46,876 bases of DNA, filler included, from Catajapyx aquilonaris (GCA_000934665.2; 2 parts of 2 records of this genome joined end to end with filler, not necessarily neighbours in it); one strand, 5' to 3'. Numbered from the whole stretch's first letter, positions 17,526 through 46,770 are shown. Program-made: numbers and translations. Notes: generated from the sequence alone by a model not told the origin.

Positions 17526-20500
17526 ATGGAGAGTCTGGACGGGGAGGATCGGAAGACTCTCCGTTCCTTCTACTCCATTTCGGACCCTCTGGAGGCCCAG
17601 TTCGAGGACCTGGATCCCCTGGTGAGGCTGGACGTCTACAGGAAGGTCCTCTACGTGTACGACTCCTCCTGGTTCGTCCCCCCTGAAGAGCCTTGTGCAG
17701 GCCCAGTCTGGAAGCAGATCCACAAGTGAGAGAGAAGCGCCATTCCTATATATGGGATCGATACCAAGGGGGGAAAACTCTTCCAACAAAAGGGGAGAAA
17801 CGTAGTGTGCGTGACAGAAGAAGAAAACCCCTTTCGATTAGTCCCCCTCACTCTTTATATAGGCCAACAACGGGTGTGCTCCATAATAACTCATATTGTC
17901 GTGGCGTTGCGCATTTGGAGGTAACGCAATACGCATTGAAAGAAATATGAACGCAATGAGCATGGAAAGAAAATGCGTGTACGCAACGCATTTAAAGAAA
18001 TAGGCAGAAAACACACACGATTTGTAGCATTAAAAGGCTAAGTTTGTTTGCTTGTTTGGCCATTTCGTACCCATTTGATGCCTGACAGTTACGCAGAGAA
18101 TGTTTGTAAAAAGCAATAGTTTGTTGGCCATTTTCATACCCATTTCGTGGCTGTGAGAAGAACGAAGGATATGTAAAAGAATAAAAAATAAAAGTATTCA
18201 AATTATTGTAATAACAAACAAAATTGTTAAAACTATAATAATAACATATAGTTCATATTTTGGGTTAGCTTGTGGCTCCAGTCATCGCTGGCTACCCCTT
18301 ATAGGGAAATGTGATGATGATGATAATAATAACAACAAATAAAATTGTTAAAATTATAATAATAACAAACAAAATTATTAAAATTATAATAACACAAAAT
18401 TGTTACAATTCTAATAATAACAAACAAATATTATCGAAATCAATGTAATAACAAATTAGATTATTGAAATTATAATAATAACATAAAATTATTAAAATAT
18501 TGAATAAAATTATTAAAAATAAAGGAATTTGTAACCTTTTGCTTGTTGACCATTTCGTACCCATTTTATGTACCTGTTTCATGTCCGTGAGAAGAATGAA
18601 GAGTAAGGATATGCTTGTTTGGCCGTTTTGTACCGATTTCATGCCGATTTTATGGCCATATGTACCCATTTTATACTAATACAAAGAACAGTTCCCTGCT
18701 AGTTTAAAAATTAAAGGCCGAATCTTCGACGTATTGTGCAAACCTGTGGGAGGGGTGCGCAAACGGGCTGCCCGTTTGCGCGCCCCTCGCGCAGGTTTGC
18801 GCGATACGTTGAAGATTCGGCCCTAAATCGCAAGTTGCGTTAAATGGCAATCAGTGCATTTACATGTTTCATGTCATTGCAGATGGATCAACCTGATGGG
18901 TGTGGGCCACTTGGCGCCCAAACGGGAGCACTTGCAGGGAAAGCGGGCACCCAGACTCCTGTCCGAGATGCTGAAGGTGATCGACCGCAAGCTGAAGCCG
19001 AACCAGATCTGCTCCAAGATACGGGTGGTAAGTGGCTGTGTGTTAACCACTTTTATTGCGTTACATTGCGCCCTTTTTTTGGTAGCTGGAAAAGAAGCTG
19101 GGGAAGCAGCAAGCGGGGCGGACTGAAAGCCACGAGTCAAAGGAGGTTGAGGTTGACAAGGAGAATGATCCGCCGGAAGCGAAAGGGAGCGGAGCGGAGG
19201 AGGAGGACACTGGCGGAGGCAGGCAGTATCGCAGGGTGTCACTGAACAAGACCTTCATCGTTGACCCCAAGACCAGCTACTTGGTGCTGAAGAAGCAGGA
19301 ACAGAAGATCAGACGTGAGACCAGGTCTGAGGATGCGGCCAGTCCAAACTTAATCCCCACTGGACGGCAACTTCCGAGGACACCGCCGCGCAAAGGGGAC
19401 GGAAGCTCATCCGAGAGAACCTCGCCTGAAGGAGCATCCCCGGAGTTGTCGCACAACGAATCATGCGATCCAACCGAGCAGAAATGTTCAACACCAGTGA
19501 GCAATCAGCCTGAAGAGGTAATTGCTACTCTTTGCGAAATTAAGGACAGGATTTAATTGTGCTTTTTTTTTTAAAGGATGCGGACAGAGAGGTTGACGAC
19601 AATGCGGAGGTGCAATCATCGCAGGAAGAGGAGGACACATTTTCGTACAGCGCAAGGTCATTCGATACTCATCCGGCACCCGTCCAAAGCTCACCTCCAT
19701 TGGCCTGGCCTCGTGGCCGCTCCTCCAACTTCCCAGCCAACCTGACATCATTCGAGCTGCTCCCTGCAATTGAACCATCCGTAACCGCCTTGCAAAACTT
19801 GATCCCAAAGGGAAAGGAAATTCCACGCACACCTGCACCTGGGATGCACCCTCGCTTCTCCATCGAATCAGACGAATCGGTTTCTCCAATATCGGAGGAG
19901 ATCGAAGGAGGCATTTCCGAGGCGTCTTCCAGTTTGCCCTCCGCATTTTCCGTCACAGAAACATGCATGACAGTCGATAGCCAGACGACGGCCACTGACA
20001 CTGAATCGGAAATCCCGGAGGAGAGCCTATTGGAGCGACTAAAGGCGGATCCGAAGCCGGAGCCGAAAGAAGAACCAGCAGAAAGTATCGACCGGAAGCC
20101 GGAACCGAAACTGAAGCCATTAAAGCTGAAAATGGAGGAAGGTCTTGGCGACACGCAGACAAGGCGGAAGCGCAACAATGCAGCGCAACGTAACAATGTG
20201 GCTAAGCGTGGAAAGGGACGGTGCAAGAAGGAAGAGTCGAGCGATGAAGTTAAGGAAGTGGCTGCACCTCCTGTAGGTAAGGAAGTGGCTGCATCTCCCG
20301 AAGTGAAGGAAGTGCCTGCACCTCCTGAAGTGAAACATGCGGCTGCACCTCCCGAACTGAAGATTGCAGCGGCTCCGAAGGTACGAACTCGCAGAAAGAA
20401 ACCGGCTAAGGTTGAAGCGGATTTATCGGAGACGTTGCCTGAACCGGAGGTAGCGAGTAGCACAAAGCGGCGGACTAGGAGACGAAAGGATGCTGCGGAA

Positions 20501-20768
20501 GAGGTGCCTGAGGCGGAGTCTCCCGCTGCGACTCTGGACGAACCGAAAGCTGAGCCGGAACAGCCTTTGGTTGTAGAAGCACGATCGTACAGGTTTCGGT
20601 CACGGAAAAAGGTCGACTACGCGGAGGAAAGCCCTGAGCAGAACAGGCGGGCTACAAAGAACAAAGGACGGAAGGTACGTCATCATTTCAATCGCACATG
20701 TTGACAGTATGATACAACAATATTTCTCGTTTCAGGCAAAACACAAGCCGAACACAGATTCCAACTGA
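17526..20768 (+). CDS. Uncharacterised ~635-aa protein: small folded N-terminal domain plus long acidic/basic disordered region, 5 exons
   Basis: Exons 17526-17725, 18883-19027, 19086-19517, 19577-20674 and 20736-20768 splice in frame with GT-AG ends (1908 nt). Several basic NLS-like clusters and SP/TP sites. Confidence 0.8.
18190..18520. repeat. AT-rich minisatellite, ~30-bp unit (AATAACAAACAAAATTGTTAAAATTATAAT)
   Basis: Several degenerate copies in intron 1 of the 635-aa gene. Confidence 0.8.
18715..18823. mobile_element. 109-bp fold-back MITE, PIF/Harbinger (Tourist)-like
   Basis: The whole element is a near-perfect palindrome with ends RGGCCGAATCTTC...GAAGATTCGGCCC, and TAA lies on both sides (18712-18714, 18824-18826). 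Confidence 0.8.
20246..20380 (+). repeat. Coding tandem repeat, 27 bp x 5 (EVKEVAAPP-like)
   Basis: EVKEVAAPP VGKEVAASP EVKEVPAPP EVKHAAAPP ELKIAAAPK. Confidence 0.85.
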
Positions 20769-23401: not shown

Positions 23402-23501
23402 NNNNNNNNNNNNNNNNNNNNNNNNNNNNNNNNNNNNNNNNNNNNTTAATTAATTAANNNNNNNNNNNNNNNNNNNNNNNNNNNNNNNNNNNNNNNNNNN
23501 N
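23402..23501. other. Assembly gap with artificial six-frame-stop spacer
   Basis: 44 N + TTAATTAATTAA (23446-23457) + 44 N = exactly 100 bases. Confidence 0.93.
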
Positions 23502-24785: not shown

Positions 24786-27700
24786 TCAACAGGGTCAATG
24801 ACTGTAGACGTGTTCTGATCCCTGATCGTCTAGATACTCTAGAAAAATAGATCCGTAGATAACATGCCGCCTACAGAAAATACTTCACACTATGCCCGAA
24901 TGTGACGCGAGCTACTAAGCAAGCTTTATAATGTGGAAGCAATGTGTAGATCGAGACTTAGATATGCTCCCTTTTCAACATCAACATGGTAACATACAAT
25001 TAATGGTTCTTCCTTGGGTTCTTCCTTGCTCTCTTCATCAGACACGCAAGTGCACTCCACGTCCAACAAAACATCAATACACTACGGAGGGAGGATTAAT
25101 AAAACTGTTTATTGTCCGATTACATGCACGGATAATGCCTGGGTCATACATGACAATAACCTCGACATATGTGGTATCACTAATAACATTTTAACAAATT
25201 GGGACATTATTGATGATGACAGTATTTTAGAAATATATTTAGGACATAAAATAATGCTGATTTTGACTTCTGGATTTATTAAGATGCAACCGAAATGAGA
25301 CACATTTACATAATGTATTAGGGCAGCAATACAAAATCTCGTGCCCCGCTCAAGTGCAAAGGAATAGACGGAAAGTGCCCCAAAAATTAATTGTACAGTA
25401 TAATATACCGAGGTGCGTTGAAAAAACTAGCTGACTGCTGTAATCCTATGGAATGAAGCTGCCGTATGTTTAAAATTTTCACACCTCGTTGCGCAAAGAT
25501 GCTAAAAAGATGATACAGAAATGTGCATGCGAAATTCTATCTTCTTAACCACGACTTCTTAATTTTTCCAACAGAGGGTCAGTAATATCGGAAGTGCTTT
25601 TTTGATGGTAAATACTTCTCAGTAACAGCCTGTGTTTCGGCCGTGAAAATCGTAGTCTTATTCAAGTAGACTTATTATATTATTCGTTAGTTGCTTACAT
25701 GTACTGTACAATAGGCTACTTTAAATGTGAAGAACACAACAATAATTAAGTGCATTTCTCGAAAGGATATGCGGGAATGCTTGCAGAGACTCGACAAATT
25801 GCTGCCTTTTGCGCACTAACTGCTGATTACTGTTACTTACTACTCCCGTTACCTAACAATTTTATATATATCGTACGATATAATATTTAGCGCCCCGGAA
25901 TTCCCCAACGAAGCATACAGTAGCAACAGCCAGAAACCCACACAACATAACCAGCGGGCCTTTTATCTGCATCAAATTCAGCTTCATAGAAAGGGTATAC
26001 GAGAGGCCTTCTTTCCTGGCTGATTTAAGCGCCATTAACGACAAAGCGTATGTGAAAGCTGTTATGTACCTATATTTCAAGCCAGCATTTTCATACCGGA
26101 GCTCAAAATCTCTAACGGCCTGGTACAACTTACTGTACTTGCTAACCACCATACCTCCAATCGCTCTGAACGAATTGTCATCCGCAATGTTGACTGGCAG
26201 CCTTCCTTCCAGATCCATATGCAAAAAGGCCACCGCATTCAGCATGTCGTAGAAGGAAAAGCAGCTGAAATCTTCCTTCATCGACCTTTGAAGACAGCTG
26301 GTCATGTCTCCTCCGTCTTGCATTCCTCTTTGCAAAGCTGGAGCATAATCTATTTCCCCGCCTAACAACAGTTTCATGTAAGGCTGGATAAAGTCCATTG
26401 CGCCCCATTCCCAATTGGGCCAGTACACCATTTCCTTGATGGTCCTGGGCAGTTTCTCCATCTGTGGGGAGACCAGGAATCCAAAAAACTTGGCGTCATA
26501 ACCGCACACAATCACGTCTGCATACAACCACCAGAAGCATATCATCACCCTCAAGGACACAGTGGCCGGAATCAGATTCGGACTCTCCTCGATCAAAGCC
26601 GAGAAAATGAATCGGATCGAGTAGCGCAGAGAATTCCCGGGTGGTTTCTCGCCTTCAGGAAACGGGTTCTGAATGAAATGGTGAAGATTCAGTGCTGTGA
26701 AGAAACACAAGCTGTACGTGACTGCTGAGAGGAATATCAGTCCCCACATCCCTCGAGTGAAAGGCTTCAGTATGGATATCCAAGAGTACAGAGGCCGCGG
26801 TGTGCGGATAGAGAAGGTAATTTGAGTCGAGAAGAAGCAAGTGGTCGGATGTACGACCAGGACCGTTTCTTCGGTGCAAGCACACGCCCCCACGTGCATA
26901 ATCCGCTTCTGAAGAGGTCCAACCATGCCTGTCCAGTTGCCATCAGGAAGTAACACGTCTTGATCGACTCCAGGAATGTCCTCGGGAGCATCAATATGCC
27001 AGTTGTAGTTTTGGGCCAATCCGCAGTCCAGGAATATCATTAGGTATGGTATCACTGGAAGGTAGTTTTCCACCATGTAATTAATATCGCTTGGTGAGGT
27101 CTCGAACATGAAGGACACGTTCATATGGCGACCATGCAGGTCTCTGGAGTAGTCAGGGAAATACTCCAAGCCAGAGTTGGGTACAATCTTCGGATATCCG
27201 GAGTCGCAAAAATGGCAGAGGTTCTTAACCACCAGAGAGTTGGCCGATTGTTCGTAGACGACGCCTAACAAGTACAGGAAGTCGTAGTCCGGCAGCATCA
27301 TCGAAGTCTGGATATCCGAATCCGGGCTGTAGTAGAAGAACTTGTTCCACCTTGGATCCAGTCTGACAAGACAGGCCACATGCTTCAGCACTGATTCGAA
27401 GTGGTCTTCGTGGTAGATGATGGCCACCAGGGTGCACTTGGACACGAATCTGGCAGTGGGCCTTTCCAGCCATGAGAACCAGTACTCGAAGTTGCCTGGT
27501 CCGGAGTTGACCTCTGGAGGTGGGGTCGATTTGGTCCACTGTATGGGCAACAGGCCTCCTTGGTCATCAGACGACATGTTTCTAAACAGGGCCGACATCG
27601 AAAGTGGAATCACTTCGTAGTCGTGGCCAACCACCAGCAGGCAGTGGTCCATTTCGGATCGGACAATCTCCAAAAAGGACATCACTTTATCTAAACCGAC

Positions 27701-28615
27701 TTCTTCGCCCGTTGAGTCGTGTAGGAAACAGGTCGACAACGGCATACTGACCACTAGGTGCAGTAATATGAAGTACAGCATCGCCATGTAGTATCTGGTA
27801 CAATACAAGTCAGTGTGTGTGAAAGAAGCAGCAGTAAAATAATGCTGGCCGAACTGATCCTACTCTTGGCTTTATAGGACAGAGAGAACATGAATGATTT
27901 GGTGCAAAATTCGCGAAGTATGACGGCATTCGGGGCCTCTGGTTTATGATCAATCAGGCATCAAAAGAAAGGTACTACGCCCATTTCCCCTTGCTTTCCA
28001 CACAGGTCTTATGCAACATTTCTATTTATATTATTTAGTATGTCCACGAGTCGTATAGGAACTGCCGCGCATATGATGCTGGCTATGCTTGTATTTTTTT
28101 AGGAAACGTGTCAGCTGAACACATTAAGATCCGGCTTCAAGCGCTACAAAATAGTTTCATGACCTGAAATGTTTAGCACAAAAACAGTAGTATATAAGTT
28201 ATTTATTTACTTTTTGGAGAAAGCTAATTTTAAAAATAATTTTCACAATTATTATTTAACTGCAAGTTCATTTATAAATTCCCGGAAGGTTGTATTGACC
28301 GGATCTGATTTTCCAATGAAATGAACACTTTCCAATAGAAACATTGACAATGTCCGTATATGAATAGCACACTTTAAGCGGAATTACTTGGCCTCCAATA
28401 ATTTATGATCGACCACTGGGTAAGATTTCAAAACAGAGCTATTGTACTTCATGGCCTCAACCCTCAAGGACCGGTGACTCCAACCCAGTTCCCTAGGAAC
28501 TAGGACAAAGCAACCATAAACATGCAACGCAACAAAATGACATCCTAATGCATGCCCACAGCCTGCGTTTTCAATATTTAAGTAAGTCTGTAGAGTTCAA
28601 GTCATGCATACCATG
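24786..28615. repeat. Segmental duplicon copy 1 (~3.8 kb) carrying an IR gene
   Basis: Collinear with 32940-36625 from TCAACAG.GTCAATGACTGTAGACGTG to CATACCATG, including non-coding flanks. Confidence 0.92.
25862..27787 (-). CDS. Divergent ionotropic receptor (IR, iGluR-related), intronless, 641 aa
   Basis: Signal peptide, S1 motif PDGNWTGMVGPLQKR, pre-M1 ILKPFTRGMW, M3 SLRVMICFWWLY...GYDAKFFGFLVSP, and M4 after LNLMQIKGP. Start taken at the ATG equivalent to the paralogue's. TATAAA at 27871-27876. Confidence 0.93.
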   Translation of the reverse strand: MAMLYFILLHLVVSMPLSTCFLHDSTGEEVGLDKVMSFLEIVRSEMDHCLLVVGHDYEVIPLSMSALFRNMSSDDQGGLLPIQWTKSTPPPEVNSGPGNFEYWFSWLERPTARFVSKCTLVAIIYHEDHFESVLKHVACLVRLDPRWNKFFYYSPDSDIQTSMMLPDYDFLYLLGVVYEQSANSLVVKNLCHFCDSGYPKIVPNSGLEYFPDYSRDLHGRHMNVSFMFETSPSDINYMVENYLPVIPYLMIFLDCGLAQNYNWHIDAPEDIPGVDQDVLLPDGNWTGMVGPLQKRIMHVGACACTEETVLVVHPTTCFFSTQITFSIRTPRPLYSWISILKPFTRGMWGLIFLSAVTYSLCFFTALNLHHFIQNPFPEGEKPPGNSLRYSIRFIFSALIEESPNLIPATVSLRVMICFWWLYADVIVCGYDAKFFGFLVSPQMEKLPRTIKEMVYWPNWEWGAMDFIQPYMKLLLGGEIDYAPALQRGMQDGGDMTSCLQRSMKEDFSCFSFYDMLNAVAFLHMDLEGRLPVNIADDNSFRAIGGMVVSKYSKLYQAVRDFELRYENAGLKYRYITAFTYALSLMALKSARKEGLSYTLSMKLNLMQIKGPLVMLCGFLAVATVCFVGEFRGAKYYIVRYI

Positions 28616-31846: not shown

Positions 31847-32820
31847 CAGTGCCGGATTTAACTTGGCAGATCTGGGGAGGGAGAAAGAAGCTAAAAATTT
31901 TCGCCCCTTTCCGAAATTTCGCTCTCCCCCCCCCCCCCNCCCCCCCAATGAGAATTAGGCCTACCTCCTTTTTGTCTGTGTTCATACAAAATGACAGCCT
32001 TGTTTTACTTTTATTACAATATTTTATGTAGAGTACATACAAAAATCAAACAATCAAAAACAGCAAAATCCAATAATATACCATTTACATTTTTTAAATA
32101 GGCAGACCACTTTTCAAATGTCCTAGGAGATGGGCTCACGCAATAATAAACAGTGTCAACAAAAAGAGCACTTTCTTCCCATTGTTGCATGAGGGCATCT
32201 CCATGGACACTTGAAAATGGGAGGTTCCAGAGGTTAGTTTATTGTGAATAATGATTTTACAAGAAGTTTTCAAATCAAAATATTTTTAAAATTCTGCAAC
32301 ACTGTTGGTATCAATGCAGTCTTCTAGCTTTATAATGATTGCAAACCTGTCGACCACTTCGTCAAACGAGAGTGATCTTGCTATTTCCTGTTCAATTGAG
32401 AGGAGAGAGAGGCCGTTCAAACGAGTCTGAATATGATGTGACTGCATTTGGGAAAACCTCTTGCATATCATTTTTCACAATGAAGTCAACAACATCAATA
32501 GGCCGCGGTGCCTTTGGGAAGCTCTTTTTCATTAAAATACGGCTCAATGAAAACATCTCCGGCACCAAATCGGCATCCAAGTCAGTGTAATACTTGGAGA
32601 CTAATTTGTCACATGACTCAGCTAACTGGTCGTTATCCAACTCCATGAGCTTCCTGGGGTACAAATATGAAAAGAGATCTGCAACTTCGCATAAACCTTC
32701 AAAGCGCTCCTTCATGCTGAGCAGCATAGAGTCCATCATGGTGTTGATGACTTGAACCTCAAAAGCTTTTCTTGGGTCAGGTATGGGTTCGTCATGAGCA
32801 ATTTCACCTGGCATAGACTT
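31847..32820 (-). mobile_element. hAT transposon 3' remnant (ZMYM1/Tip100-like transposase fragment)
   Basis: TIR-like CAGTGCCGGATTTA at 31847, dimerisation-domain sequence QTRLNGLSLLSIEQEIARSLSFDEVVDRFA and upstream MKERFE...VFPNAV. Internally deleted and frameshifted. Confidence 0.85.
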
Positions 32821-32939: not shown

Positions 32940-35900
32940 TCAACAGTGTCAATGACTGTAGACGTGTTCTGATCGTCTAGAAAAATAGATCTGTAGATAG
33001 GCCTAATAACATTCCACCCACTGAAAATACTTGCACTGCCAGAATGTGAAGCGAGCTACTAAGCAAGCTTTATAATGTGGAAACAATGTCTAGATCGAGA
33101 CTTAGACATGCTCCCTTTTCAACATGGTAACACACAATAATGCCTGGGTCATATTACTCATAGATGACATGAACGACGACATAATTATGTGGTATCATTA
33201 ATAACATTTTTAACAGATTGGGACAGATGACAATGTTTTAGAAATATATTTAGGACAGAAAATAATGTTGATTTTGACTTCTCAATTTATTAAGATGCAA
33301 CCGAAATGAGACACATTTACATAATGTATTAGTGCAGCAATAAAAACATCTCGTGCCCTGCTCAAGTGCAAAGGAATAGACAAAAAGTGCCCCAAAAATT
33401 AATAAATTGTATAATGTACCGAGGTGTGTTGAAAAACCTAGCTATGGAATGAAGCTGCTGTAGGTTTAAAATTTTCACGCCTCGTTAGGCGAAGGTGCTA
33501 AAAAGATGATACAGAAATGTGCATGCGAAATTCTAGGTTCTTAACCACGACTTCTTAATTTTTCCAACATCGGGTCAGTAACATCGGAAGTGCCTCTTTG
33601 ATGGTAAATACTTCTCAGTAACAGCCAGTGTTTTGTCCGTGAAAATCATAGTCTTATGCAAGTAGAGTATTATTATTCGTTGGTCGTTTACATATACCGT
33701 ACAGTATAGGCTACATGCGTAGAGCATAGCAGTATTTAAGTGCATTTCTACAAAGGATATGCGGGAATACGTGCAGAGACCCGACAAATTGCTGCCTTTT
33801 GCGCACTACCTACTAATTACTGTTACTTACTACTCCCCCTTCCCTAGCATTTTTATATTTCCGATCTGAATATTTAGCTCCCCGGAATTGAAGTAATTCC
33901 CCAACGAAGCATACCGTACCGAGAGCCAGAAACCCACACAACATAACCAGCGGGCCTTTTATCTGCATCAAATTCAGCTTCATAGAAAGGGTATACGAGA
34001 GGCCTTCTTTCCTGGCTGTTTTAAGCGCTATTAACGACAAAGCGTATGTGAAAGCTGGCATGTACCTACAATTCATGCAAGCATGTTCAAATCTGAGCTC
34101 AAATTCTCTAACAGCTTGATACAACTTACTGTACTTGCTAACCACCATAGCTCCAATCACTTTGAACGAATTGTCATCCACAATGTTGACTGGCAGCCTT
34201 CCTTCCAGATCCATATGCAAAAAGGCCATCGCATTCAGCATGTCGTAGAAGGAAAAGCAGCTGAAATCTTCCTTCATCGACCTCTGGACACAACTGGTCA
34301 TGTCTCCTCCGTCTTGCATCCCTCTTTGCAGAGCTGGAGCGTAATCTATTTCACCGGCGAAAAATAGTTTCAAGTAAGGCTGGATAAAGTCCATTGCGCC
34401 CCATTCCCATTTGGGCCAGTGCACCATTTCCTTGATGCTCCTGGGCAGCTTCTCCATCTGTGGGGAGACCAGGGATCCAAAAAACTTGGCGTCATAACCG
34501 CACACAATCACGTCGGCATACAACCACCAGAAGCATATCATCACTCTCAAGGATACAGTGGCTGGAATCAGATTCGGATTCTCCTCGATCAAAGCCGAAA
34601 ACATGAATCGGATCGAGTAGAGCAGAGAATTCCCGGGTGGTTTCTCGCCTTCAGGAAACGGGTTCTGAATGAAATTGTGAAGCTTCAGTGCTGTGAAGAA
34701 ACACAAGCTGTACGTGACTGCTGAGAGGAATATCAAGCCCCACATCCCTCCAGTGAAAGGCTTCAGTATGGATATCCAAGAGTACAGAGGCCGCGGTGTG
34801 CGGATAGAGAAGGTAATTTGAGTCGAGAAGAAGCAAGTGGTCGGATGTACGACCAGGACCGTTTCTTCGGTGCAAGCACACGCCCCCACGTGCATAATCC
34901 GCTTCTGAAGAGGTCCGACCATGCCTGTCCAGTTGCCATCAGGAAGTGACACGTCTTGATCTACTCCGGGAATGTCCTCGGGAGCAACAATGTGCCAGTT
35001 GAAATTCATGGCCAACCCCGAGTCCAGGAATATCATTAGGTATGGTATCACTGGGAGGTAGTTTTCCATCATGTAGCGTACGTCGCTTGGTGTGGTCTCG
35101 AACATGAAGGACACGTTCATGTGCCGCCCATGCAGGTCTCTGGAGTAATCAGGGAAATACTCCAAGCCATAGTTGGGCACAATCCTCGGATATCCAGCGT
35201 CGCAAAAATGGCAGAGGTTCTTAACCACCAGAGAGTTGGTCGATTGGTCGTACACGACGCCTAACAAGTACAGGAAGTCGTAGTCCGGCAGCATCATCGA
35301 CGTCTGGATATCCGAATCCGGGCTGTAGTAGAAGAACTTGTTCCACCTTGGATCCAGTCTGACAAGACTGGCCACATGCTTCAGCACTGATTCGAAGTGG
35401 TCTTCGTGGTAGATGATGGCCACCAGGGTGCACTTGGACACGAATCTGGCAGTGGGCCTTTCCAGCCATGAGAACCAGTACTCGAAGTTGCCTGGTCCGG
35501 AGTTGACCTCTGGAGGTGGGGTCGATTTGGTCCACTGTATGGGCAACAGGCCGCCTTGGTCATCAGACGACATGCTTCTAAACAGGGCCGACATCGATAG
35601 TGGAATCACTTCGTAGTCGTGGCCAACCACCAGCAGGCAGTGGTCCATTTCGGATCGGACAATCTCTAAAAAGGACATCACCTTATCTAAACCGGCTTCT
35701 TCGCCATTTGAGTCGTGTAGGAAAGAGGTCGACAACTGCATACTGACCACTAATAGGTGCAGTAATATGAAGTACAGCATCGCCATGTAGTATCTGGTAC
35801 AATATAAGTCAGTGTGTGTGAAAGAAGCAGCAGTAAAATAATGCTGACCGAACTGATCCTACTCTTGGCTTTATAGGACAGAGAGAACATGAATGATTTG

Positions 35901-37840: not shown

Positions 37841-38438
37841 TCATATTATGATAAACCCAATACAAATATTTAATCCACTACTCTCATTTTTTAGAAAATT
37901 GCACATCAGTCAATTTTCAAAGTTGAAAAGTCTTTGAAATCATGTGCATTACGTAATGATTTCATTATGCAACAAAAAATGCCTTCCCAAATTTATCTGC
38001 AGTACTTTTTTGAAATCATATAATTCTGCAGTAAAAAAATGAAAATACGTAAATTAAAAATACACAAATATGGGACGAGTACAAATGCAATAAGCCACAT
38101 AAAAACACCTGGCCTAAAGTTTCAGCACCAAACTAAGGTTATTTCTGATAGATATTAATTTTGTATAATGTACATGGCAATTGCATTTAAGGTCTTCCCA
38201 ATACCAAATGTAAAGTTGAAAGGGTGAGAGGAATGAACTTGCACACACAATTTTCAAAATTGTATGTTACATTTATATTAATTACTACTGTATTACTCAA
38301 TTTTTGCACTTCTCATGTCACGTGTCCAAATTTATTACTCTGTCAACCTTTCATTATTTTATTTATTGGAAAATTAAGAAACGAAAGGGAAATGCAGCAA
38401 AATGAGGCAAAATATTAAATCAGGAATGGTTGCTGCTC

Positions 38439-41400
38439 TTAATCATCTTCTTCCTCCACATGAACATCTTGTTCCATGTCAGAATCAGCGCTGTAATCCT
38501 CGCCTGGCATTGAGTAAGTAAAGTCTCCACTACCTGACGTGTCTAATTCCATTCTGGTACTAGATCCAGGACGATTCATTTTGGTAAAAGAAACCTCAGG
38601 AGTCTCCCCTTCTGTCTCTGCAGGCTCGGGAAAGTTGTCAGCCACAAATTGGGCAGCCTCTTCTTTTGTAATGTTTCGGATTGACTGTTTTGTTCCATGT
38701 GCCTCGACGAGATAGATCGAATCAGCCATGTCCAGAAACTCCTGATGAAAGGAAGTGATGAAGAATTGGGTGTTCTGGGACATGTCCTTGATCAGTTCAG
38801 CCAATTTCCTTCGATTTGTAGCATCCAGTGACTGTTGAAAAAAAAAAACAATCCAGAAGAATTCAATATAGGCTACGCCAGTAACAGATGTAATGGACAA
38901 TTTGTATCTGTCATTCAGCACATGTTGAATAATTGCTCTCAAAAATCTGAAAACATATTTCTTAAGTTTTTTTGACAGTGGTTCAATTCCAGAGATGGAA
39001 AATGTGTAGGCACTTTGTTGACACATTATTATTATTCCCCAATAAAACTCTAATAATGCCACACACTGCACTGTGAGAGCCACTAGTTTAGAGGACTATA
39101 TAAGGAGTTTTAAATAACTTACGCTATCTATCTCGTCCATCAGGAAGAAAGGAGATGGGTTGCACATGTGCAAGGCCATCAAAAACGCCAGTGACACCAG
39201 TGACTGCTCACCAGCGGACAGCCACTGGACGGGGACAAAGGACTCTTCTGCATTATCTGGATCCAGGTACACCTGAATGGTAATACCAACTGGTTTTCCA
39301 AAGTCAGTGTGGGTGGCCATCCTCATCTTGGTTCGGGCCTTTGGCAGGAAGTGATTGAAGATCTTCACAAAAGCATCTCGCACACGCTCGAATGATGCTT
39401 GAAGAACTTCATCCTTCTTTCCTTCGACATCCTCTATCAGATCCCTGAGATCCTGATTTCTAAAGGGAAGAGTGGAAAGTGCATATTTGATGCATTAAAA
39501 AGTTGGGGAAATGACATGAGAAGGCTGTTACTGCTGCAATTTAACTGTTGAAAAATTTTGACATTTAATGTGCCAATATGATTTTTAAGGAAATTTCTGA
39601 TAGACATCTTAATAATTATGAATAGAGAGGGGCATTTCTCTGCCCAGGTTGACAATCTAGAGAGAGGGGAGAAAAAAGGTTGAGGAATTACTCTCTCCTG
39701 ATCCTCATTTAAGGCCAGGCTAATTGGCATAATCTACCTTCACCATTTTGCATACACATTTGGTTAATATTCCATCAACTCTTCCTTCTCCCCTCTCCTC
39801 AGATCGTCAACTTGGGCTGTGAAACACCATACTAATAGCATTTCCCTCGAGGTTGACCAGCTGGTGTACAATAGGCTACACTTTTGTCATGTAAATCACA
39901 AAATAATGAGTAGGAAAGTTTAATGCTTCCTTACATGGTAAATGACTACATGAGAGGTGCTTTCAACTATTTCAAAATTAATATTGTTGGGCATTTCAAC
40001 AGCCATGAGTAATATTCAACTTATGCTATAACACAGCATTTTAACTTATGCAAAAAAAAAAGTATGATTCAGAATGACTTACCCAGTTTTTAATATCTCC
40101 AACGAATTGATCACTCTCTTCAATCCGTCATCCACATTTTCCAATTCTTCTGTCACAGTAGGAACAGCTATTGGTGAGGGGGTTACCTCTTTGTCACCAG
40201 CAATTTTCACAAGCTCATCTGTGGGTTTTTCCTGCAACTCATTGTATGTTTTTCCATCTGGAACTATTCCCATTTCATCCAGCTTTTGCTTCAGTTTGGT
40301 GATCTTCTGGGAAATTTGCCCTCGTCGCTTGTCCTTATTTTCGAGCTCTTTTTTTGTGTCATCGATTGCCTCCTCCAGCTTGTTCTTTGCACTTTCACAC
40401 TGCTCCAGTTTGGACTTATCTGTCTGATGGTCTTTTTTTATCTTCTTGTATTCTTGCTTTTTCTCTCTCTGGTCATCTTGCAATTTCTGATACCTGCTGG
40501 AAATGACGTTACGCTGCTCTTGTAGTTTTTTCTCTTCTTCGACCTTGTTGGTGAAATCAGTTTTGGTGATACGTTCATCGATACCCTGCATCTCATTCAA
40601 AATGCGTTCCCGTTCCCTTTGCAGACGACCAAGACGTCCTCCAACAGTTTTGCATTCTTTCTTAGCAGACTCCAACTCTCTCCGCAGTTCTTCCTCTTCT
40701 CTGCCAAGTCTCTCAAATGATGCTGCCAATGGTTCACCCACTCCACTTTCAATCTTGCTTTTGAAAGCCTCTAGTTGCCCTGTAATATTCTTGCCCTTCT
40801 GGAGTTCAGTGTCCAACCGTAATATGGTTTGTTTAAGGTTCTGAATCTCCCTCTCCGAGCTCAGGAAATTGCCCTGAAACGTTTTAAGCTGCGATTCGCT
40901 TGCAAGTGATTTATCAGCGCAGTCCCTCATCTTTTTTTTCAGAGTTGTGGCTTCATTTTCAATATTTCTGAGAGTCTCTTCACACTCTTTCATTTCTTTA
41001 GACTTCCTCTCTAATTCTTCTCTGAGTTGTTGTTTAGTGTGAAAGTGGTGCAATGTCGACATTTGGTGAGAAAAGTACCCACCTTCCACAAATCCATCTG
41101 GCATACACTTATGACCTTGGAGTGTAACACACACCTTGCCAAGCTCCTCTGATAGGACATCTCCCTCAGTCAAGGATCTGCACAGAAGCTTGTTCCCAAG
41201 CAGGTGATCAATCAGAGGTAGCATTTTCGGATCATGTGGGGCAACCATTGTAGAGAGTGCAACTGCGCCCTAGACAACAAGACATTCTGTTAGTTACGAC
41301 CATATGCTTATATTGGCAAAAGTAGTAGTAGCATTATTATTTTTTTATTATTAAATTATTATACTGTGCCATACTATTATATCCCCTCAAAAACACACTC

Positions 41401-44400
41401 GTAAAAAACGCGCCAAGTCTTCCGCCGAAAAAACCTGTGAGATAGTGTCTGGGAGCCAAGCCTTGTCCACTCCGCCGTACAAAGTCATGAGATTAATCTA
41501 CCCAAACTATTTGTTTTGAATGGCGTTTGAAATTGTACCGGAAATGTTTACTCGAGATTTCCGCAAAATCGGGAGCACATAAATACGATATATGCCAACC
41601 ATAAAACATTTTGTGCATGTTAGGCCCTACTGAGAAAGGAGTCGGTTTCACGATTTTTCGATAATTTTTATTGTTGATTTTAAAAACTTTTCACGGGGTT
41701 AAATGATTAATTTGACATTTTCTGATCCAGAAATAATTTTAAAACAGCCAATTCAGTAATTGTTTAATTGTTATTATGCCACAATGTCTCAGCTGAGCAT
41801 TCCAAAACGATTGTGCATAATATATCTCATTGTGGCATAATAACAATTAAACAATATTACTGCATTGGCTGTGTTAAAATTATTTCTGGATCAGAAAATG
41901 TCAAATTAATCATTTAACCCCGTGAAAAGTTTTTAAAATCAACAATAAAAATTATCGAAAAATTGTGAAACCGACTCCTTTCTCAGTAGGGCCTAACATG
42001 CACAAAATGTTTTATGGTTGGCATATATCGTATTTATGTGCTCCAGATTTTGCGGAAATCTCGAGTAAACATTTCCGGTACAATTTCAAACGCCATTCAA
42101 AACAAATAGTTTGGGTAGATTAATGATGAATGCAAAAAACATAATTTAGGCCGCCATTTTGGATCCAAATTTTGTGATTTTATTAGGATGATAATAACCA
42201 TCTCACAGAGAGTGAAAACACATTTACAATGCACATATCAATTTTAAGATTTAACCCGATCTTCTGGGTGTTATGGTCCTCCAACTGACAGCGTACAGGT
42301 CGAAAACGCGCGCCGGCTGCATTTTCGCCCTCTGGCGGGTGAGATTCCAAAAATCTCCTCCTAAACTCTTCGGAAATATGAAGCACACATTTCAAGGTTC
42401 ATTTTGAGTGCCATTCAAAAAATCTCAAAAATGGCCAACGTTGAGTAATATGAAAATCAAAATTTCGCCGTCATCTTGAAATCCAAAGTTTTTACTTCCG
42501 GCAATTTTCAATGCGATATCATGAAAGGCCGTTAAAAGAGGTTCCGAAATCACCCATCACATTTGGATTCACTTGAGGGGTTCAGAAGTTACGGGACTCC
42601 ATTCAAAGCCCTAGCCGCGTAAAATGAGTGAAACATCACAACTTACACACCCTGTAGTTTCGCAACCACGTGAGACAGAGATACAAAATCTGGGATTCTT
42701 ACATATAAGCACTAGTACAACACATCTATGGAATTTGGTCGAAATCGTACGAGATTTGTCGGGGGGTGGTCCGCTTGACATGGAATGCCTCATATATGAA
42801 TGAAAAGAAAAAACGCCAATTTGGGCCCGCTCCTGTTGTGGACCTAGTGGTCCAAATTTCACGACAATTTATTTGTATGGTCCCCGGGTGTGCCCCATTG
42901 TCGTATTAAAATATAAGACTTGCAGCATTTTCCTGTGCCGAACTAGAAAATGCCGAAGTGTAGAGAGCGAGTTGGCTCCAGTAAAGGATGCACGGCAGCG
43001 CGAGACGAGAGGGGGAGAGAGAGAGAGTGGTGGAGAGAAGGGGCTATAGTGCGGGTCAGTGGCGGTGGAAGTGGCTTAGACTTGGCGGATGCACTGCCGT
43101 GCATCTTGATCATAATTATCCATCCCATGTAATGCAATCTCAAATGCAACTACCATCAATAAATTGGAGGCTTCCCCACTATCTGGTTACGTAATTCGCA
43201 ATTTTCAGCCTACAAAACCACATAATTATGCTCTTTCCATGTGCTCTGACCCAGGTAGAGATAACCCACGAACAACCAGAAATTGGATTTGAATTTGAAT
43301 TAAACTATGTTGCGCCTATATGCGCAACAAGCGTGCTGCACCAATCCTGTGGTAAATTTACTTTCATTGAGGTTGGAAATACTGCTGTACTTTACATACT
43401 TCTTGCCCTTGTAATAATGAATTTATAATGTAAAGCTTTGGCGATTTCCACTTTGACCAATGTGCATTACTCTTTCGTGTTTTTAGCTACGGTATTTACT
43501 CCTCTCGGAATGGCCAGCTAGCCTTTTAATCTGTTCTCAGGTGTTTTTGATAACAACCATAATTAACTGCTCAATAAATGCTTGCAAATAAGCAGCTTAT
43601 TTGCAAAAAAAAAATTGCTAACCACTGCGGATATTTCAATTGGAATATCTTGTATACTACACCTTACACCCAGTACAGTACTTACACATTGTGGAAAATT
43701 TCAATTACTCTGATTAATGTGCAGCTCTCTGAATAAAAGCTGCTTTCTTATAGGCCTACTTACTTTTAGATCAGGCGGTAGTCTACCACGGGTCTTCAGC
43801 TTGTCCAGAGCGAAAATATTCATGGATCCATTCACAAGCCTTCTTTTGACTTCTTCCAAAAAGGTTGTTGCTGCTTCTGCTGTATCAAATACATAGTTGA
43901 ATAAACTGAAAATGAATAATAATAATCATCATTATCATAATAATAATAACCATAATAATAATAATAATCATCATCATCATCATCATCATCATCATAATAA
44001 ATGTCTTTGAACCCTGGTTGGTTGATTCTGTTGATAAGGAGGGCCGACTAATGTGGTAATGCCCTATATGTACCTTTTATTCAAGCAGCTCTGAATGGCA
44101 GCATATAGTTTCTTGTCACATTCGAAGTTCTCCATGACCATGCCATGGTATGATTCGGCAACTTCCTCATACTCTCCACCACGTCTGCGGAAAATTTCAA
44201 GCACTTCCTCGACAACGCAATTTGTTTTCCAGAGTTCCTAAGGGTAAAAAAAATAATTACTACAGCCCTGATATGATTATACATTGAGATCGCTGAGCAA
44301 AAATAAAATACTAACAGGCCCCATAATGGCACGCAACTCACGATTAGCTTCTTCCAACTGCTTCTCTATATAATTGATTTCATTTTCGATTCTGACCTTG

Positions 44401-45886
44401 TAACGCAGTTGATCATTATACTCTGACTGCTTGGCAGAAAGCTTTAGAGCATCTTTCTTTCTCTGGTCCTCATAATCATTAATCTCTGATTTTACCTGCT
44501 CTGGGTAGTCTCGCATATCTGACATCTCAGTCTCGAGCTTTGTCAATGCTTCCTTTTTTTCATGTAAATCTGCATCTATGCGAGTAACCTCCTCATTCCA
44601 GTGTCCTTTTATTTTGTCAAGGTGTTGGATTTCTGATTCCTGCCATGTACTAGGTACATCTTGGCTGTCAGCTTCGAAAGCATGGCTCATTTCATTTAGG
44701 ACAGCTCGCATGTTGCAAATCTCCGTCATCCTGTGAAAGTGAGATAATGGTTATGAGTAATCACATACATTGAAGCGTTTTAGTTACTAGGGCTGTCTTT
44801 TTCTCCACATAATGTGCACTGTACTTACTTAAGCTCCTTTCTATCCTGTGCTATTTTCTTCTGATGGTAGTCGTCTAGTAGTTTGTATTCTTCTCCTTTT
44901 ACCTGCCTATATTCATTTTCAAGATCAGTCTTCCTTTCTCTAAGAACATCTGCGTTGCTCTCTTGCATGCCTTGCAGTTTCCTTTCAATTCCATCCATCA
45001 TACGCTTGATCATATCATCATCAGAGCCAAGTGTTTGCAGCTCGCCATACAAGTTTCTCTCTTTATCTGCACTCATCTTTTCTGCCATATGAGCTTCATT
45101 TTGGACTATTTGTGCCTGTTCGAGCTCGTTCAATAGATATATCAACTTGTCCTTCATTGAGCTGATGTTCTGCTCACAGTCTGCGATCCTGCCTCTCATC
45201 TTTGCCAAAGGACGCTCATTCAATATTATCTTAGCACATCGTCGCAGCCTATCTTCCTTCTCCATCTTCTCCAACTTTTCCATCCGCTTTTGGAGGGCAG
45301 ATTTTTCTCTACCTAATTCCTCCGCTGCTGCTTGCATGCCTCTAATTTGTTCCTCGCTTATTTTCATAGTCGTCTGCATTTCAGCACGGTTGCTTTCATA
45401 TACGTTTACCCCAGCCATATTGTGGAGAATTTCCAACAGACGTTCTTCTCTTGCAGTTGCCAGTCTCGTGACCATTCCCTGCTTCATATAGTTGTAGGAT
45501 GTTCCATTGACGAGTCCTGAGGCTTCTAGCAGTGACTCTATTTCTTTTGCTGAGGTATGGCGATCATTCAAATAAAACTGATCATGCGTGCTTGCCACTG
45601 CGTGAGCCAGATGCACTTCTTCATTCACCTCTTGTAGCCTGTGGTCTGTGTTGTCAAAAGTAACAGTGACCCGTGCTACTTTGGCCTGTTTTACCCCGTG
45701 GCTGTTGATCAGGCTCATTCTTTGCTGATCAGTTGTGCGGCCTGGTGAGCGACCCAGAACGAAGTTTATTCCACTCAACAGGCTGCTTTTACCTGTTCCA
45801 TTGCAGCCGATAATCAAGTTTATCCCAGTACTTGCATTGTTCAGAGAAATTCTATCTCCGAATCCCTTGAAACCCTCCAGGGTCAC
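38439..45886 (-). CDS. SMC3: Divergent SMC3-like cohesin ATPase subunit, ~1231 aa in 7 exons (a short first exon was not located)
   Basis: Exons 44829-45886, 44316-44730, 44074-44237, 43764-43905, 40083-41269, 39123-39459 and 38439-38831 splice in frame (3696 nt). Walker A GCNGTGKS, Q-loop YMKQG, SMC3-type hinge YHGMVMENFECD and GX6GX3GG, signature LSAGEQ, Walker B PSPFFLMDEID, D-loop SLD, QFFITSFH. Confidence 0.9.
41380..42960. mobile_element. Probable non-autonomous repeat element hosting the palindrome (Helitron/Helentron-like, tentative)
   Basis: Repeat-typical blocks (GGCCGCCATTTTGG, TTTTTACTTCCGG) and a terminal hairpin GCATTTTC...GAAAATGC at ~42926-42953. Boundaries are approximate. 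Confidence 0.4.
41492..42124. repeat. Long near-perfect inverted repeat (~295-bp arms, 41-bp spacer) in an SMC3-like intron
   Basis: 41492-41786 is the reverse complement of 41828-42124 with only a few mismatches/indels. Confidence 0.95.
43912..44000. repeat. (AAT)n/(CAT)n compound microsatellite
   Basis: Read directly from the sequence; intronic. Confidence 0.95.
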
Positions 45887-46321
45887 CTGCAATGAAATAG
45901 AACAAAATAATATCTCCCCCTAGCTGCGGGTTCAGTGAGAAAACATTTGCCTCATAAAGGTCAGGGGTTTGGCTAAAACTTTTGGTGCACAATTAGCGAA
46001 GGCAAAGGTTGATTGAATGCACTTTATCTCACATCTTAACACAGAGCAGATTCGGGTGGAATTTTTTTATGAGCTCAACCGAGTGCGCAACACAGTTCGC
46101 GCAACTTGCAAGGTTGGAATTATTATCAGTGATAGCTGGTAAGCTCTATGCATAGTGGGTTCTGGTAAACAAGCGCCGCCGGACTTATTTCCAAGGCTAC
46201 TCTTAAGGGGGGTAACAATATGGCCGACCTTTGCGACGTTGCTAAGGCTCTGGAAGGATGTAAATTTGGTCCCTGACGAGTCGTGCAAATACCACGTGAC
46301 CGATTTTAGGAAACTTTTTTT

Positions 46322-46421
46322 ACCCCCCTCCCCCCAATGACCTACCGTGGTATCCATTGGAACCCCCCTCCCCCCAATGACCTACCGTGGTATCCATTGG
46401 AACCCCCCTCCCCCCCCCCCC
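46322..46421. repeat. ~40-bp direct repeat x 2
   Basis: CCCCCTCCCCCCAATGACCTACCGTGGTATCCATTGGAA occurs twice. Confidence 0.85.
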
Positions 46422-46445
46422 TTTCACGTGTGTGGGTGTGATCAG

Positions 46446-46770
46446 GTCTTGACTAAGGNGTAGCTGTGGGGACCAGTTCCAATTGTGGGGACATTTGTCG
46501 GTCCCCACAGTCTCACACACGCGAAGTGTACCATTACAGTGGGGACATGTGTAAATTAGTGGGGACATGTCCCCACTATTTTCATTTGTAGGTTTTCACA
46601 AAAGTTCATTTTTCTCAGCCTAGGTTACTTAGGGTAGGGTAGGTTAGGTAGGGTAGGGTAGGTTAGGTTAGGTTAGGGTAGGTTAGGTTAGGTTAGGTTA
46701 GGTTAGGTTAGATCAGTTTACACTCTCAGTGAAAAGTGATCAATGTCCGTCCCCACGCCTTAGTCAAGAC
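46446..46770. mobile_element. Non-autonomous TIR element with internal (TTAGG)n array
   Basis: Inverted repeat GTCTTGACTAAGG (46446-46458) / CCTTAGTCAAGAC (46758-46770), subterminal GTGGGGAC/GTCCCCAC motifs, a TTAGG/TAGGG run at 46621-46711 and TG-rich flanks. Confidence 0.75.

Follow-up and report, generated by a model that had tools for sequence, protein, structure and literature searches.

In the window analyzed here, a stretch of 46,876 nucleotides of Catajapyx aquilonaris (GCA_000934665.2) made of two parts joined end to end with filler, positions 38439 to 45886 carry on the minus strand a real, single-locus, spliced gene. Judging from its sequence, the encoded protein is a full-length and extremely diverged SMC ATPase of the SMC3 branch, most likely a duplicate that arose long ago from the animal cohesin SMC3, with an ordinary SMC3 located elsewhere in the genome. 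Few chromosomal proteins are as conserved as SMC3, in which the acetylation of two adjacent lysines acts as the switch by which cohesin comes to hold sister chromatids together. The relative described here presents an open frame, retains the ATPase residues, has one junction seen spliced and lacks the acetylation switch. As an extra copy, should it be one, it would represent a natural experiment in a cohesin-type ring working without acetylation control.

The gene was rebuilt from the window sequence as seven exons, named A to G in the direction of transcription and all on the minus strand, which join into an open reading frame of 3696 nt, i.e., 1231 codons followed by a TAA, with no internal stops. 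All six introns are of the GT..AG type, and each of the 12 splice sites is canonical. In DNA of 39 to 43% GC, the two largest exons stay open over 364 and 396 codons, far more than chance would allow. Exon A (45886-44829) encodes the N-terminal half of the head and a first stretch of the N-terminal coiled-coil arm, and it contains the Walker A motif GCNGTGKS (residues 27 to 34), the Q-loop MKQGMV, and T100-H101 in the place of K105-K106. The N-terminal arm continues in exon B (44730-44316) as far as the beginning of the hinge; this exon aligns colinearly with SMC3 in MAFFT, and its donor site, CCT/GTTAGT, was picked on the grounds that it joins the hinge without a gap. The first part of the hinge, with the YHGMVMENFEC segment, lies in exon C (44237-44074), and its middle part lies in exon D (43905-43764), the 47 residues of which are likewise colinear with SMC3. 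The last part of the hinge, with the GGY motif, and the greater part of the C-terminal coiled-coil arm are encoded by exon E (41269-40083), while exon F (39459-39123) provides the end of this arm and the C-terminal half of the head, with LSAGE and the Walker B motif FFLMDE. Finally, exon G (38831-38439) completes the head, with the D-loop SLD and the QFFITSFH segment, and adds an acidic tail of 66 residues, 20 of which are D or E, before closing with the TAA at 38439-38441. The 3' untranslated region (38300-38438) shows an AATAAA at 38367-38362 and another at 38336-38331. The initial annotation had described seven exons of about 1231 codons without stop or frameshift, with head, coiled coils and hinge all present; the rebuilt frame with its GT..AG introns bears this out, and the head, the two arms and the hinge are colinear with those of SMC3.

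Exon A opens at an acceptor site, without an ATG, and about five N-terminal residues are absent from the model, which therefore lacks a first exon. In the 990 nt upstream of it within the window we could find no convincing first coding exon, since none of the 14 ATG...GT candidates resembles M-x-I-K-x. One weak candidate on the minus strand (46577-46585; ATG AAA ATA/GTGGGG) would join MKI to VTLEGFKGF, with a poor donor site and an N terminus two residues shorter than the canonical one; it has no support and is given as a lead only. The DNA directly upstream of exon A consists of high-copy repeats, with a summed word depth of 1709 in 45869-46100 in the DNA sequencing run X1. The 2.5-kb D/E intron is as a whole high-copy DNA by the same measure (summed X1 word depth of 660 to 2950 across 41171-42997, compared to about 27 to 30 on the exons) and includes a foldback repeat (41492-42124) made of two 269-nt arms, 99% complementary and 95 nt apart.

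Splicing was observed directly at one junction. A contig of the public run X5, whose kind is not on record, links 39459 directly to 40083. The 623 nt left out between them end in CT..AC, or GT..AG when read along the gene, and the junction of the contig corresponds exactly to the predicted E/F splice sites; the evidence of splicing from X5 is limited to this bridged intron. No contig of the DNA run X1 shows the E/F joint, and the X1 contigs match 38300-41425, 43090-43900 and 44006-46092 with no differing letters. Within the gene, X5 contigs cover 44870-45124 in exon A, 39144-39279 and 39309-39459 in exon F, and 38338-38690 in exon G; the last of these, together with a contig over 38300-38360, also covers the 3' untranslated region. 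The depths of the X5 contigs are low (2 to 5), and their missing cover over the introns and exons B to D was treated as neutral evidence. One low-depth X5 contig follows exon F only to 39144 and then diverges from the window, which is unexplained. The initial view of an intact gene is likewise supported, with a frame kept open over 1231 codons and one intron spliced out in a public run.

The assignment to the SMC3 class comes from the comparison with solved structures and with sequence profiles. In the PDB, five of the exons (A, C, E, F and G) find their best match in SMC3. In particular, exon A matches human SMC3 at 3e-27 (99 bits), compared to 3e-18 (69 bits) for SMC2, 1e-18 (71 bits) for the bacterial Smc and 3e-4 (24 bits) for SMC1A. 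SMC3 hinges are the sole SMC class matched by exon C (best, 4.7e-6) and by exon E (1.9e-5), the top match of exon F is SMC3 (3.4e-9), and exon G matches SMC3 only (best, 3.5e-6); exon D, searched alone with its 47 residues, has no significant match in the PDB. The Pfam family SMC_N is found in exon A (1e-20), exon F (1.2e-10) and exon G (2.9e-7, below the gathering score when taken alone), and exon B matches no Pfam family. With the full-length protein, the BLASTP alignment to the SMC3 of the horseshoe crab Tachypleus tridentatus extends over 1232 columns and scores 318 bits, compared to 72 bits for an SMC2 and 74 bits for a bacterial Smc, both confined to the heads. Furthermore, the protein scores 446 bits against a profile of 26 canonical SMC3 sequences and 307 bits against bacterial Smc, whereas an SMC2 used as a control on the same profiles scores 418 and 425 bits, respectively. 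By PDB matches and profiles, the globular modules are closer to SMC3 than to the other SMC classes, SMC1, SMC4, SMC5 and SMC6 being compared through PDB matches only, with no rows in the trees. The SMC3 type advanced in the initial annotation is thus supported by the five exons and the profiles.

Searches of larger protein collections with the head returned distant matches. A word-index search with exon A among longer proteins gave 83 matches with identities of 22 to 31%, 82 of them unnamed or bearing bacterial Smc names and the remaining one a eukaryotic SMC2 (P0060), an uninformative outcome. With HMMER, exon A gave 8687 matches at E<=1e-3 and none at E<=1e-30 in a library of 1.84 billion proteins, where no close relative or orthologue was found, the best identity being about 35 to 36%. 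The look-up of residues 1 to 180 of the head in the ESM Atlas retrieved generic SMC_N clusters only, bacterial or archaeal plus one SMC2, none of which is named SMC3.

Phylogenetic trees were built from the head and hinge columns, and in three of them the SMC3 clade that contains the protein and excludes one SMC2 and bacterial Smc is supported at 100, 99, and 100/99. In the mixture-model tree of 21 rows, made after dropping three long rows (Seison, P0084 and P0178), the protein is nested within animal SMC3 (100/99), beside two Anopheles proteins named SMC3-like (96/92), and its terminal branch is 3.05 substitutions per site long, versus 0.13. The end branches are about 0.45 in the Anopheles SMC3-like proteins, 1.84 in Seison and 0.4 to 0.5 in nematodes. 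When Seison, P0084 and P0178 are kept, the protein pairs with Seison among the long branches. By the AU test, neither a tree that puts the protein outside the other 19 SMC3 rows (P = 0.141) nor one with the arthropod rows held as one clade (P = 0.479) is rejected. The trees separate the SMC3 clade, with the protein in it, from SMC2 and bacterial Smc; the position of the protein relative to the other SMC3 rows depends on the sampling and is left free by the AU test. Shared derived residues were considered as a link to Anopheles and discarded as not specific: co-derived columns are shared with the Anopheles proteins at 9 of 32 and 9 of 29, no more commonly than with Seison (17 of 53) or P0178 (11 of 39).

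The divergence from canonical SMC3 is extreme, as the initial annotation had maintained. The protein is 23.5% identical to the horseshoe crab SMC3 along its length and 31% identical in the columns of the head and hinge. Of the 115 near-invariant SMC3 columns it keeps 62, the other 53 being changed or gapped (two gaps); the corresponding numbers are 54 to 59 for bacterial Smc, 68 for an SMC2 and 92 to 93 for the Anopheles SMC3-like proteins. The altered core motifs that had been pointed out are all three present, namely GCNGTGKS, LSAGEQSLVSL (residues 1069 to 1079) and PSPFFLMDEIDSSLD (residues 1090 to 1104, across the F/G junction), and the canonical forms quoted for them occur in human and horseshoe crab SMC3. 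The residues on which ATP binding and hydrolysis depend are all kept: the lysine of Walker A, the glutamine of the Q-loop, the serine of the signature motif, the Asp-Glu pair of Walker B and the aspartate of the D-loop. However, the signature motif reads LSAGE in place of LSGGQ, the VNKKA motif at the joint between C-terminal arm and head is lost, several hinge and neck invariants are changed, and T100-H101 align to K105/K106, a KK pair that is the acetyl acceptor for ESCO/Eco1 and that all the canonical rows shown possess, plants and nematodes included. K105 and K106 of human SMC3 are acetylated sites, according to the available text of PMC7054000. On sequence grounds, the protein has lost control features of SMC3 (the KK pair, LSGGQ and VNKKA) and gained an acidic tail. 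The altered signature and joint motifs could also reflect impaired head engagement rather than new regulation.

Other elements of the SMC3 architecture are preserved. The arms measure 321 and 343 residues, compared to 328 and 353 in the horseshoe crab protein, all five hinge glycines of the invariant set are kept (G523, G572, G645, G656 and G657), and patterns typical of SMC3 (QQRMSLI, DQFYL and ITSFH) occur near the changed sites. Identity amounts to 32.3, 27.7 and 33.8% in the domains, compared to 14.8 and 15.3% in the arms; domains about twice as conserved as arms are the pattern expected under purifying selection.

We hold with moderate confidence that these observations describe, jointly, a single-locus spliced arthropod gene, an old and diverged duplicate of SMC3, and a subunit of a variant cohesin-like ring. 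The protein would still act as an ATP-driven SMC arm, its hinge would pair with that of an SMC1-type partner, and a kleisin would close the resulting ring. Loading, release or cohesion by such a ring might be independent of SMC3 acetylation, and this independence would suggest a specialized role.

A protein that derives from SMC3 and no longer belongs to cohesin, having been recruited elsewhere (e.g., as a homodimer or with a lineage-specific kleisin-like protein) for a job unrelated to cohesion, is an unlikely reading but the best placed of the alternatives. The retention of SMC3-invariant columns at about the level of bacterial Smc (62 of 115), the changes in the KK pair, in VNKKA and in several hinge and neck invariants, the new acidic tail and the 3.05 substitutions per site on the end branch would all suit it; on the other hand, the arm lengths and the hinge glycines still match SMC3, QQRMSLI, DQFYL and ITSFH remain beside the changed sites, and no candidate partner was seen in the window.

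We consider it quite improbable that the locus is a transcribed duplicate without function, or in decay, whose frame has stayed open by luck and whose proper 5' end is absent. At a divergence near 3 substitutions per site across the conserved columns, 1231 codons cannot stay open by chance, the catalytic residues are selectively kept in domains twice as conserved as the arms, and all 12 splice sites are canonical, with one junction spliced. The missing ATG and first exon, the repeat DNA upstream of exon A and in the D/E intron, the altered signature and joint motifs, and the X5 depths of only 2 to 5 would suit this reading.

The preferred reading takes the gene to be an extra copy, with a canonical SMC3 elsewhere in the genome. 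The neighboring FOXO exon is 73 to 80% identical to tick, spider and beetle FOXO, and therefore the genome as a whole is not fast evolving; for the other neighbor, an IR-like gene, a protein search at E<=1e-10 gave no match. In sawflies, the canonical SMC3 shows a dN/dS of 0.0122, the lowest among the cohesin and condensin genes in the available part of that survey. Paralogy is suggested by the ordinary evolution of FOXO, together with the strong conservation of canonical SMC3 and the grouping with an Anopheles SMC3-like duplicate. That this is instead the sole SMC3 orthologue of the species, evolving exceptionally fast, is very unlikely: long-branch SMC3 proteins do occur in other animals (Seison, nematodes), whether as sole copies or not, but the KK pair of all canonical rows shown is lost here, the adjoining FOXO is 73 to 80% identical to its counterparts in distant arthropods, no cohesin gene is more constrained than canonical SMC3 in what is accessible of the sawfly survey, and the nearest tree group is a protein described, in the part of the source available, as a duplicate.

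It is possible to hypothesize, as a speculative extension that we rate as doubtful, an old arthropod-wide second SMC3 lineage, including Daphnia SMC3B and the Anopheles SMC3-like proteins and forming a distinct, acetylation-free cohesin-like ring; the suggestion arises because K105 is already lost in Anopheles and both lysines are lost here. If true, arthropods would have a second, differently regulated cohesin, perhaps in the germline, which would have gone unstudied because flies have no copy of it or because it evolves too fast to be recognized.

Compared to canonical SMC3 (human, PDB 6wg3_B and 8roj_A; T. tridentatus, XP_076317146.1, here P0103), the protein has the same domain order and is colinear over its full length, with similar Walker A, Q-loop, Walker B, D-loop and hinge glycines and arms within 7 to 10 residues. 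Different from it are the T-H pair, LSAGE, the lack of VNKKA, a shorter loop in the C-terminal half of the head and the extra 66-residue acidic tail, as well as a gene with seven known exons, two of them longer than 1 kb.

Divergent second copies of SMC3 were reported in 2009 for Daphnia (SMC3B) and Anopheles in the accessible portion of the Daphnia paper, which agrees with the extra SMC copies that the initial annotation had mentioned for Daphnia and adds Anopheles to them. Among the literature matches listed for extra SMC3 genes, the only relevant one besides that paper is a table entry in a study of Oncopeltus, and a search for literature on AGAP008672 found none. Daphnia pulex SMC3B and the Anopheles SMC3-like proteins (AGAP008672, XP_557814.3; P0199 and P0228) are likewise described, in the available text, as long-branch proteins with intact head, hinge and arms. 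The Anopheles proteins share with the present one the replacement of K105 with threonine, of L65 with isoleucine and of H66 with asparagine. However, they keep 92 to 93 of the 115 columns, LSGGQ, one lysine and VN..A, and their end branch is about 0.45, compared to 3.05; the grouping with them is not robust once other long rows are added, and the sequence of Daphnia SMC3B lies outside the comparison. The gene is probably an extreme case of the divergent arthropod SMC3 duplicates already known from these two genera and, if it is an extra copy, would be the third and by far the most diverged of them. Vertebrate SMC1-beta, a meiosis-specific paralogue of SMC1 and not of SMC3, stands far closer to its mitotic sister than this protein does to SMC3. 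It provides a precedent for a second, specialized cohesin SMC, an analogy named in the accessible part of the Daphnia paper.

The SMC3-like gene on the minus strand of the window (38439 to 45886) consists of seven open segments, i.e., exons A (45886 to 44829), B (44730 to 44316), C (44237 to 44074), D (43905 to 43764), E (41269 to 40083), F (39459 to 39123), and G (38831 to 38439), joined via six GT..AG introns. The initial annotation had described seven exons giving about 1,231 codons without a stop, and rebuilding the coding sequence from the window returned exactly this arrangement (3,696 nt, corresponding to 1,231 codons plus TAA, with zero internal stops); the three altered core motifs that it quoted are all present in the rebuilt protein. 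In the multiple alignment, all exon joins are colinear with canonical SMC3, and the junctions of the hinge and head are gap-free. Exon A opens at an acceptor (ttcattgcag followed by GTG) and its alignment begins at SMC3 residue 6, so that the model is without a start. No convincing first coding exon was found in the 990 nt of the window upstream of exon A, the sole lead, a weak one, being ATGAAAATA followed by GTGGGG at 46585 to 46577. Upstream of the gene, at about 46300 to 46440, there are two tandem copies of a short motif that looks coding (..GVPMDTTVGHWGEGG..). Single N letters are found at 31939 and 46459, with further N runs (44 and 44 bases) in 23402 to 23501.

Three contigs of the DNA sequencing run X1 match the exons and their near flanks with zero differences (38300 to 41425, 43090 to 43900, and 44006 to 46092), at a depth of 24 to 30. 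Both the 2.5-kb D/E intron and the DNA immediately 5' of exon A are repeats, as the summed X1 word depth there reaches hundreds to thousands. The same intron contains a foldback, MITE-like element (41492 to 42124) made of two 269-nt arms, 99% complementary and 95 nt apart, with the same 65-codon open frame in both. As for splicing, one contig of X5, a public run whose kind is not on record, fuses 39459 to 40083, exactly the predicted E/F junction; the 623 nt omitted end in CT..AC, i.e., GT..AG on the strand of the gene, and the joint is absent from X1. It follows that a spliced molecule of the gene exists, which is most simply an mRNA. Further X5 contigs map to exons A, F, and G as well as to the 3' UTR. 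A low-depth X5 contig of 210 letters matches 39144 to 39279, in exon F, without difference, its remaining 74 letters not being on the window; position 39144 is no splice site of the model, since it is 21 nt short of the exon F donor and has no GT, and this contig could represent a chimera, an alternative end, or another copy.

Elsewhere in the window, two intron-free open frames on the minus strand, in tandem and very alike (25862 to 27859, 665 codons; 33813 to 35858, 681 codons), look, from their sequence, like arthropod ionotropic-receptor (IR) genes, as both match the ligand-gated ion channel family of Pfam (Lig_chan, 2e-8 and 9e-8, respectively); for the latter frame, a word-index search returned no protein at an E value of ≤1e-10. 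Furthermore, we could notice an exon matching mitochondrial ribosomal protein S31 (15165 to 15566, minus strand; MRP-S31, 2.7e-26) and, on the plus strand (19086 to 20704), two long open frames (156 and 386 codons) with a high content of K, E, P, and S, the longer of which matched no Pfam family.

Pfam SMC_N was matched in exons A, F, and G of the SMC3-like gene. Among solved structures, human SMC3 is the best match of exon A (E value of 3e-27, 99 bits), followed by the Smc3 proteins of S. pombe and yeast (1e-24 to 6e-19), bacterial Smc (1e-18), SMC2 (3e-18), and SMC1A (3e-4). SMC3 is the only SMC class matched by exons C (4.7e-6), E (1.9e-5), and G (3.5e-6) and is at the top (3.4e-9) among many SMC heads for exon F; exon D (47 aa) alone gave zero matches in this set. 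In BLASTP, the spliced protein aligns end to end with SMC3 of Tachypleus tridentatus (P0103; 318 bits, 23.5% identity over 1,232 columns), and with SMC2 (P0060, 72 bits) and bacterial Smc (74 bits) in the heads only. Its score is 446 bits with a profile built from 26 canonical SMC3 proteins versus 307 bits with one of bacterial Smc, the corresponding values of an SMC2 control being 418 versus 425 bits. Moreover, SMC3-typical patterns persist beside the altered sites, namely, QQRMSLI (cf. EQRQALL), DQFYL (cf. DQYFL), and ITSFH (cf. TTTFR). Counting against this class, a search of the ESM Atlas with head residues 1 to 180 returned one SMC2 cluster, all others being generic SMC_N clusters.

The best matches of exons A, C, E, F, and G among solved structures and the profile scores thus bear out the SMC3 type proposed by the initial annotation, and the extreme divergence that it claimed, core motifs included, is equally borne out, with LSAGE in place of the LSGGQ signature and 62 of 115 near-invariant SMC3 columns (identical in at least 25 of the 26 canonical proteins) kept. 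By the same count, the Anopheles SMC3-like proteins keep 92 to 93 columns, Seison 76, an SMC2 68, and bacterial Smc 54 to 59. In a full-length set of 96 rows (95 library proteins of at least 1,000 aa and the model), the median score of the model to the other rows is 127 bits, joint lowest with row P0192, and that of Tachypleus SMC3 is the highest (640). Identity to the latter is 32.3% and 33.8% in the N- and C-terminal head halves, 27.7% in the hinge, and 14.8% and 15.3% in the N- and C-terminal arms. When exon A was compared by HMMER with 1.84 billion representatives, 8,687 matches were obtained at an E value of ≤1e-3, zero at ≤1e-30, and none above 36% identity among the best 150; the library held no orthologue, no near relative, and not the window protein itself. 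Since this arthropod taxon is without close annotated relatives, the missing orthologues are weak evidence for lineage restriction.

The catalytic residues are kept, i.e., Walker A K33, Q-loop Q136, signature S1070, Walker B D1097-E1098, and D-loop D1104, together with the QR-motif arginine and all five hinge glycines of the near-invariant set, and the arms measure 321 and 343 residues versus 328 and 353 in Tachypleus SMC3. Other elements are changed. The VNKKA(L)DQ region where the C-terminal arm and head meet, termed the "joint," reads AVPTVTEE; the C-terminal head half has a loop that is shorter by about 27 residues; and the C-terminus is a tail of 66 residues, 20 of them D/E and 14 S/T. 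T100-H101 aligns to K105/K106 of human and Tachypleus SMC3. The protein departs from canonical SMC3 in two defining features, the lysine pair and the near-invariant residues. The lysines K105/K106 are acetylated in human SMC3 (PMC7054000, accessible text), and this modification is described as required for cohesion in the abstract of PMC13722876. It is possible to hypothesize that the window protein is an ATP-binding SMC arm, probably ATP-hydrolysing, in which acetylation control would be abolished and, given the changed signature and joint motifs, head engagement may be altered or weakened.

With regard to the rest of the genome, the first coding exon of FOXO, on record JYFJ02005691.1 (7295 to 7795, minus strand; Forkhead domain, 1.7e-12), is 80%, 74%, and 73% identical to its counterparts in a tick, a spider, and the beetle Tribolium, respectively, so that the lineage is not generally fast-evolving. 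The sawfly survey, in its accessible text, gives canonical SMC3 as the least variable cohesin/condensin gene (omega of 0.0122) and reports a sporadic SMC3 duplication in one sawfly. The lysine pair occurs in every canonical row shown, from plants to nematodes. On these grounds, and by analogy with the Daphnia and Anopheles duplicates, a canonical SMC3 copy is very probably present elsewhere in the genome.

All trees were built on head and hinge columns only (517 to 519 columns). The 44-row LG tree places the model in the SMC3 clade (support of 100), where it lies with Seison among other long branches, outside the 27-row canonical group. The 24-row mixture-model tree recovers the SMC3 clade (99) and the pairing with Seison (83), with an end branch of 2.26 for the model versus 0.14 for Tachypleus. 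On this set, the AU test rejected neither a single clade of the arthropod rows and the model (cost of 0.84 log-likelihood units, P = 0.479) nor a tree in which the other 19 SMC3 rows group to the exclusion of the model (5.5 units, P = 0.141). In the careful 21-row mixture-model tree, which omits three other rows that are long-branched or unnamed (Seison P0194, P0084, and P0178), the model falls within the animal SMC3 clade (100/99) as sister to the two Anopheles SMC3-like proteins (96/92), with an end branch of 3.05 versus 0.13. K105 to T, L65 to I, and H66 to N are common to the model and these proteins. Derived residues shared with the model are no commoner in Anopheles (9/32 and 9/29 co-derived columns) than in Seison (17/53) or P0178 (11/39), and common ancestry with the Anopheles duplicate is therefore a lead from sequence and not a result. 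Two unnamed full-length proteins of SMC3 type from public assemblies, P0084 (ENA) and P0178 (Logan), are likewise long-branched; over their full length, both match animal SMC3 best, and they may represent additional diverged copies of SMC3 in animals.

As a possible cohesin-type subunit working independently of acetylation, the window gene is a well-defined and testable candidate; its significance hinges on an ordinary SMC3 existing in the same genome, and at present it is descriptive. The literature retrieved on divergent SMC3 duplicates comprised a 2009 Daphnia paper and an Oncopeltus gene-table entry, with nothing for AGAP008672. The accessible text of the former documents divergent second SMC3 copies in Daphnia and Anopheles, in agreement with the divergent extra SMC copies in Daphnia mentioned in the initial annotation, and groups SMC3B with the duplicated Anopheles SMC3, both being long-branched and external to the SMC3 clade of metazoans and fungi. 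The position of the Anopheles duplicate beside the model in our 21-row tree echoes that grouping. Among known systems, the window gene comes closest to canonical SMC3 and to the divergent second SMC3 copies of Daphnia and Anopheles, which are uncharacterised; it is of the same kind as these duplicates but far more extreme.
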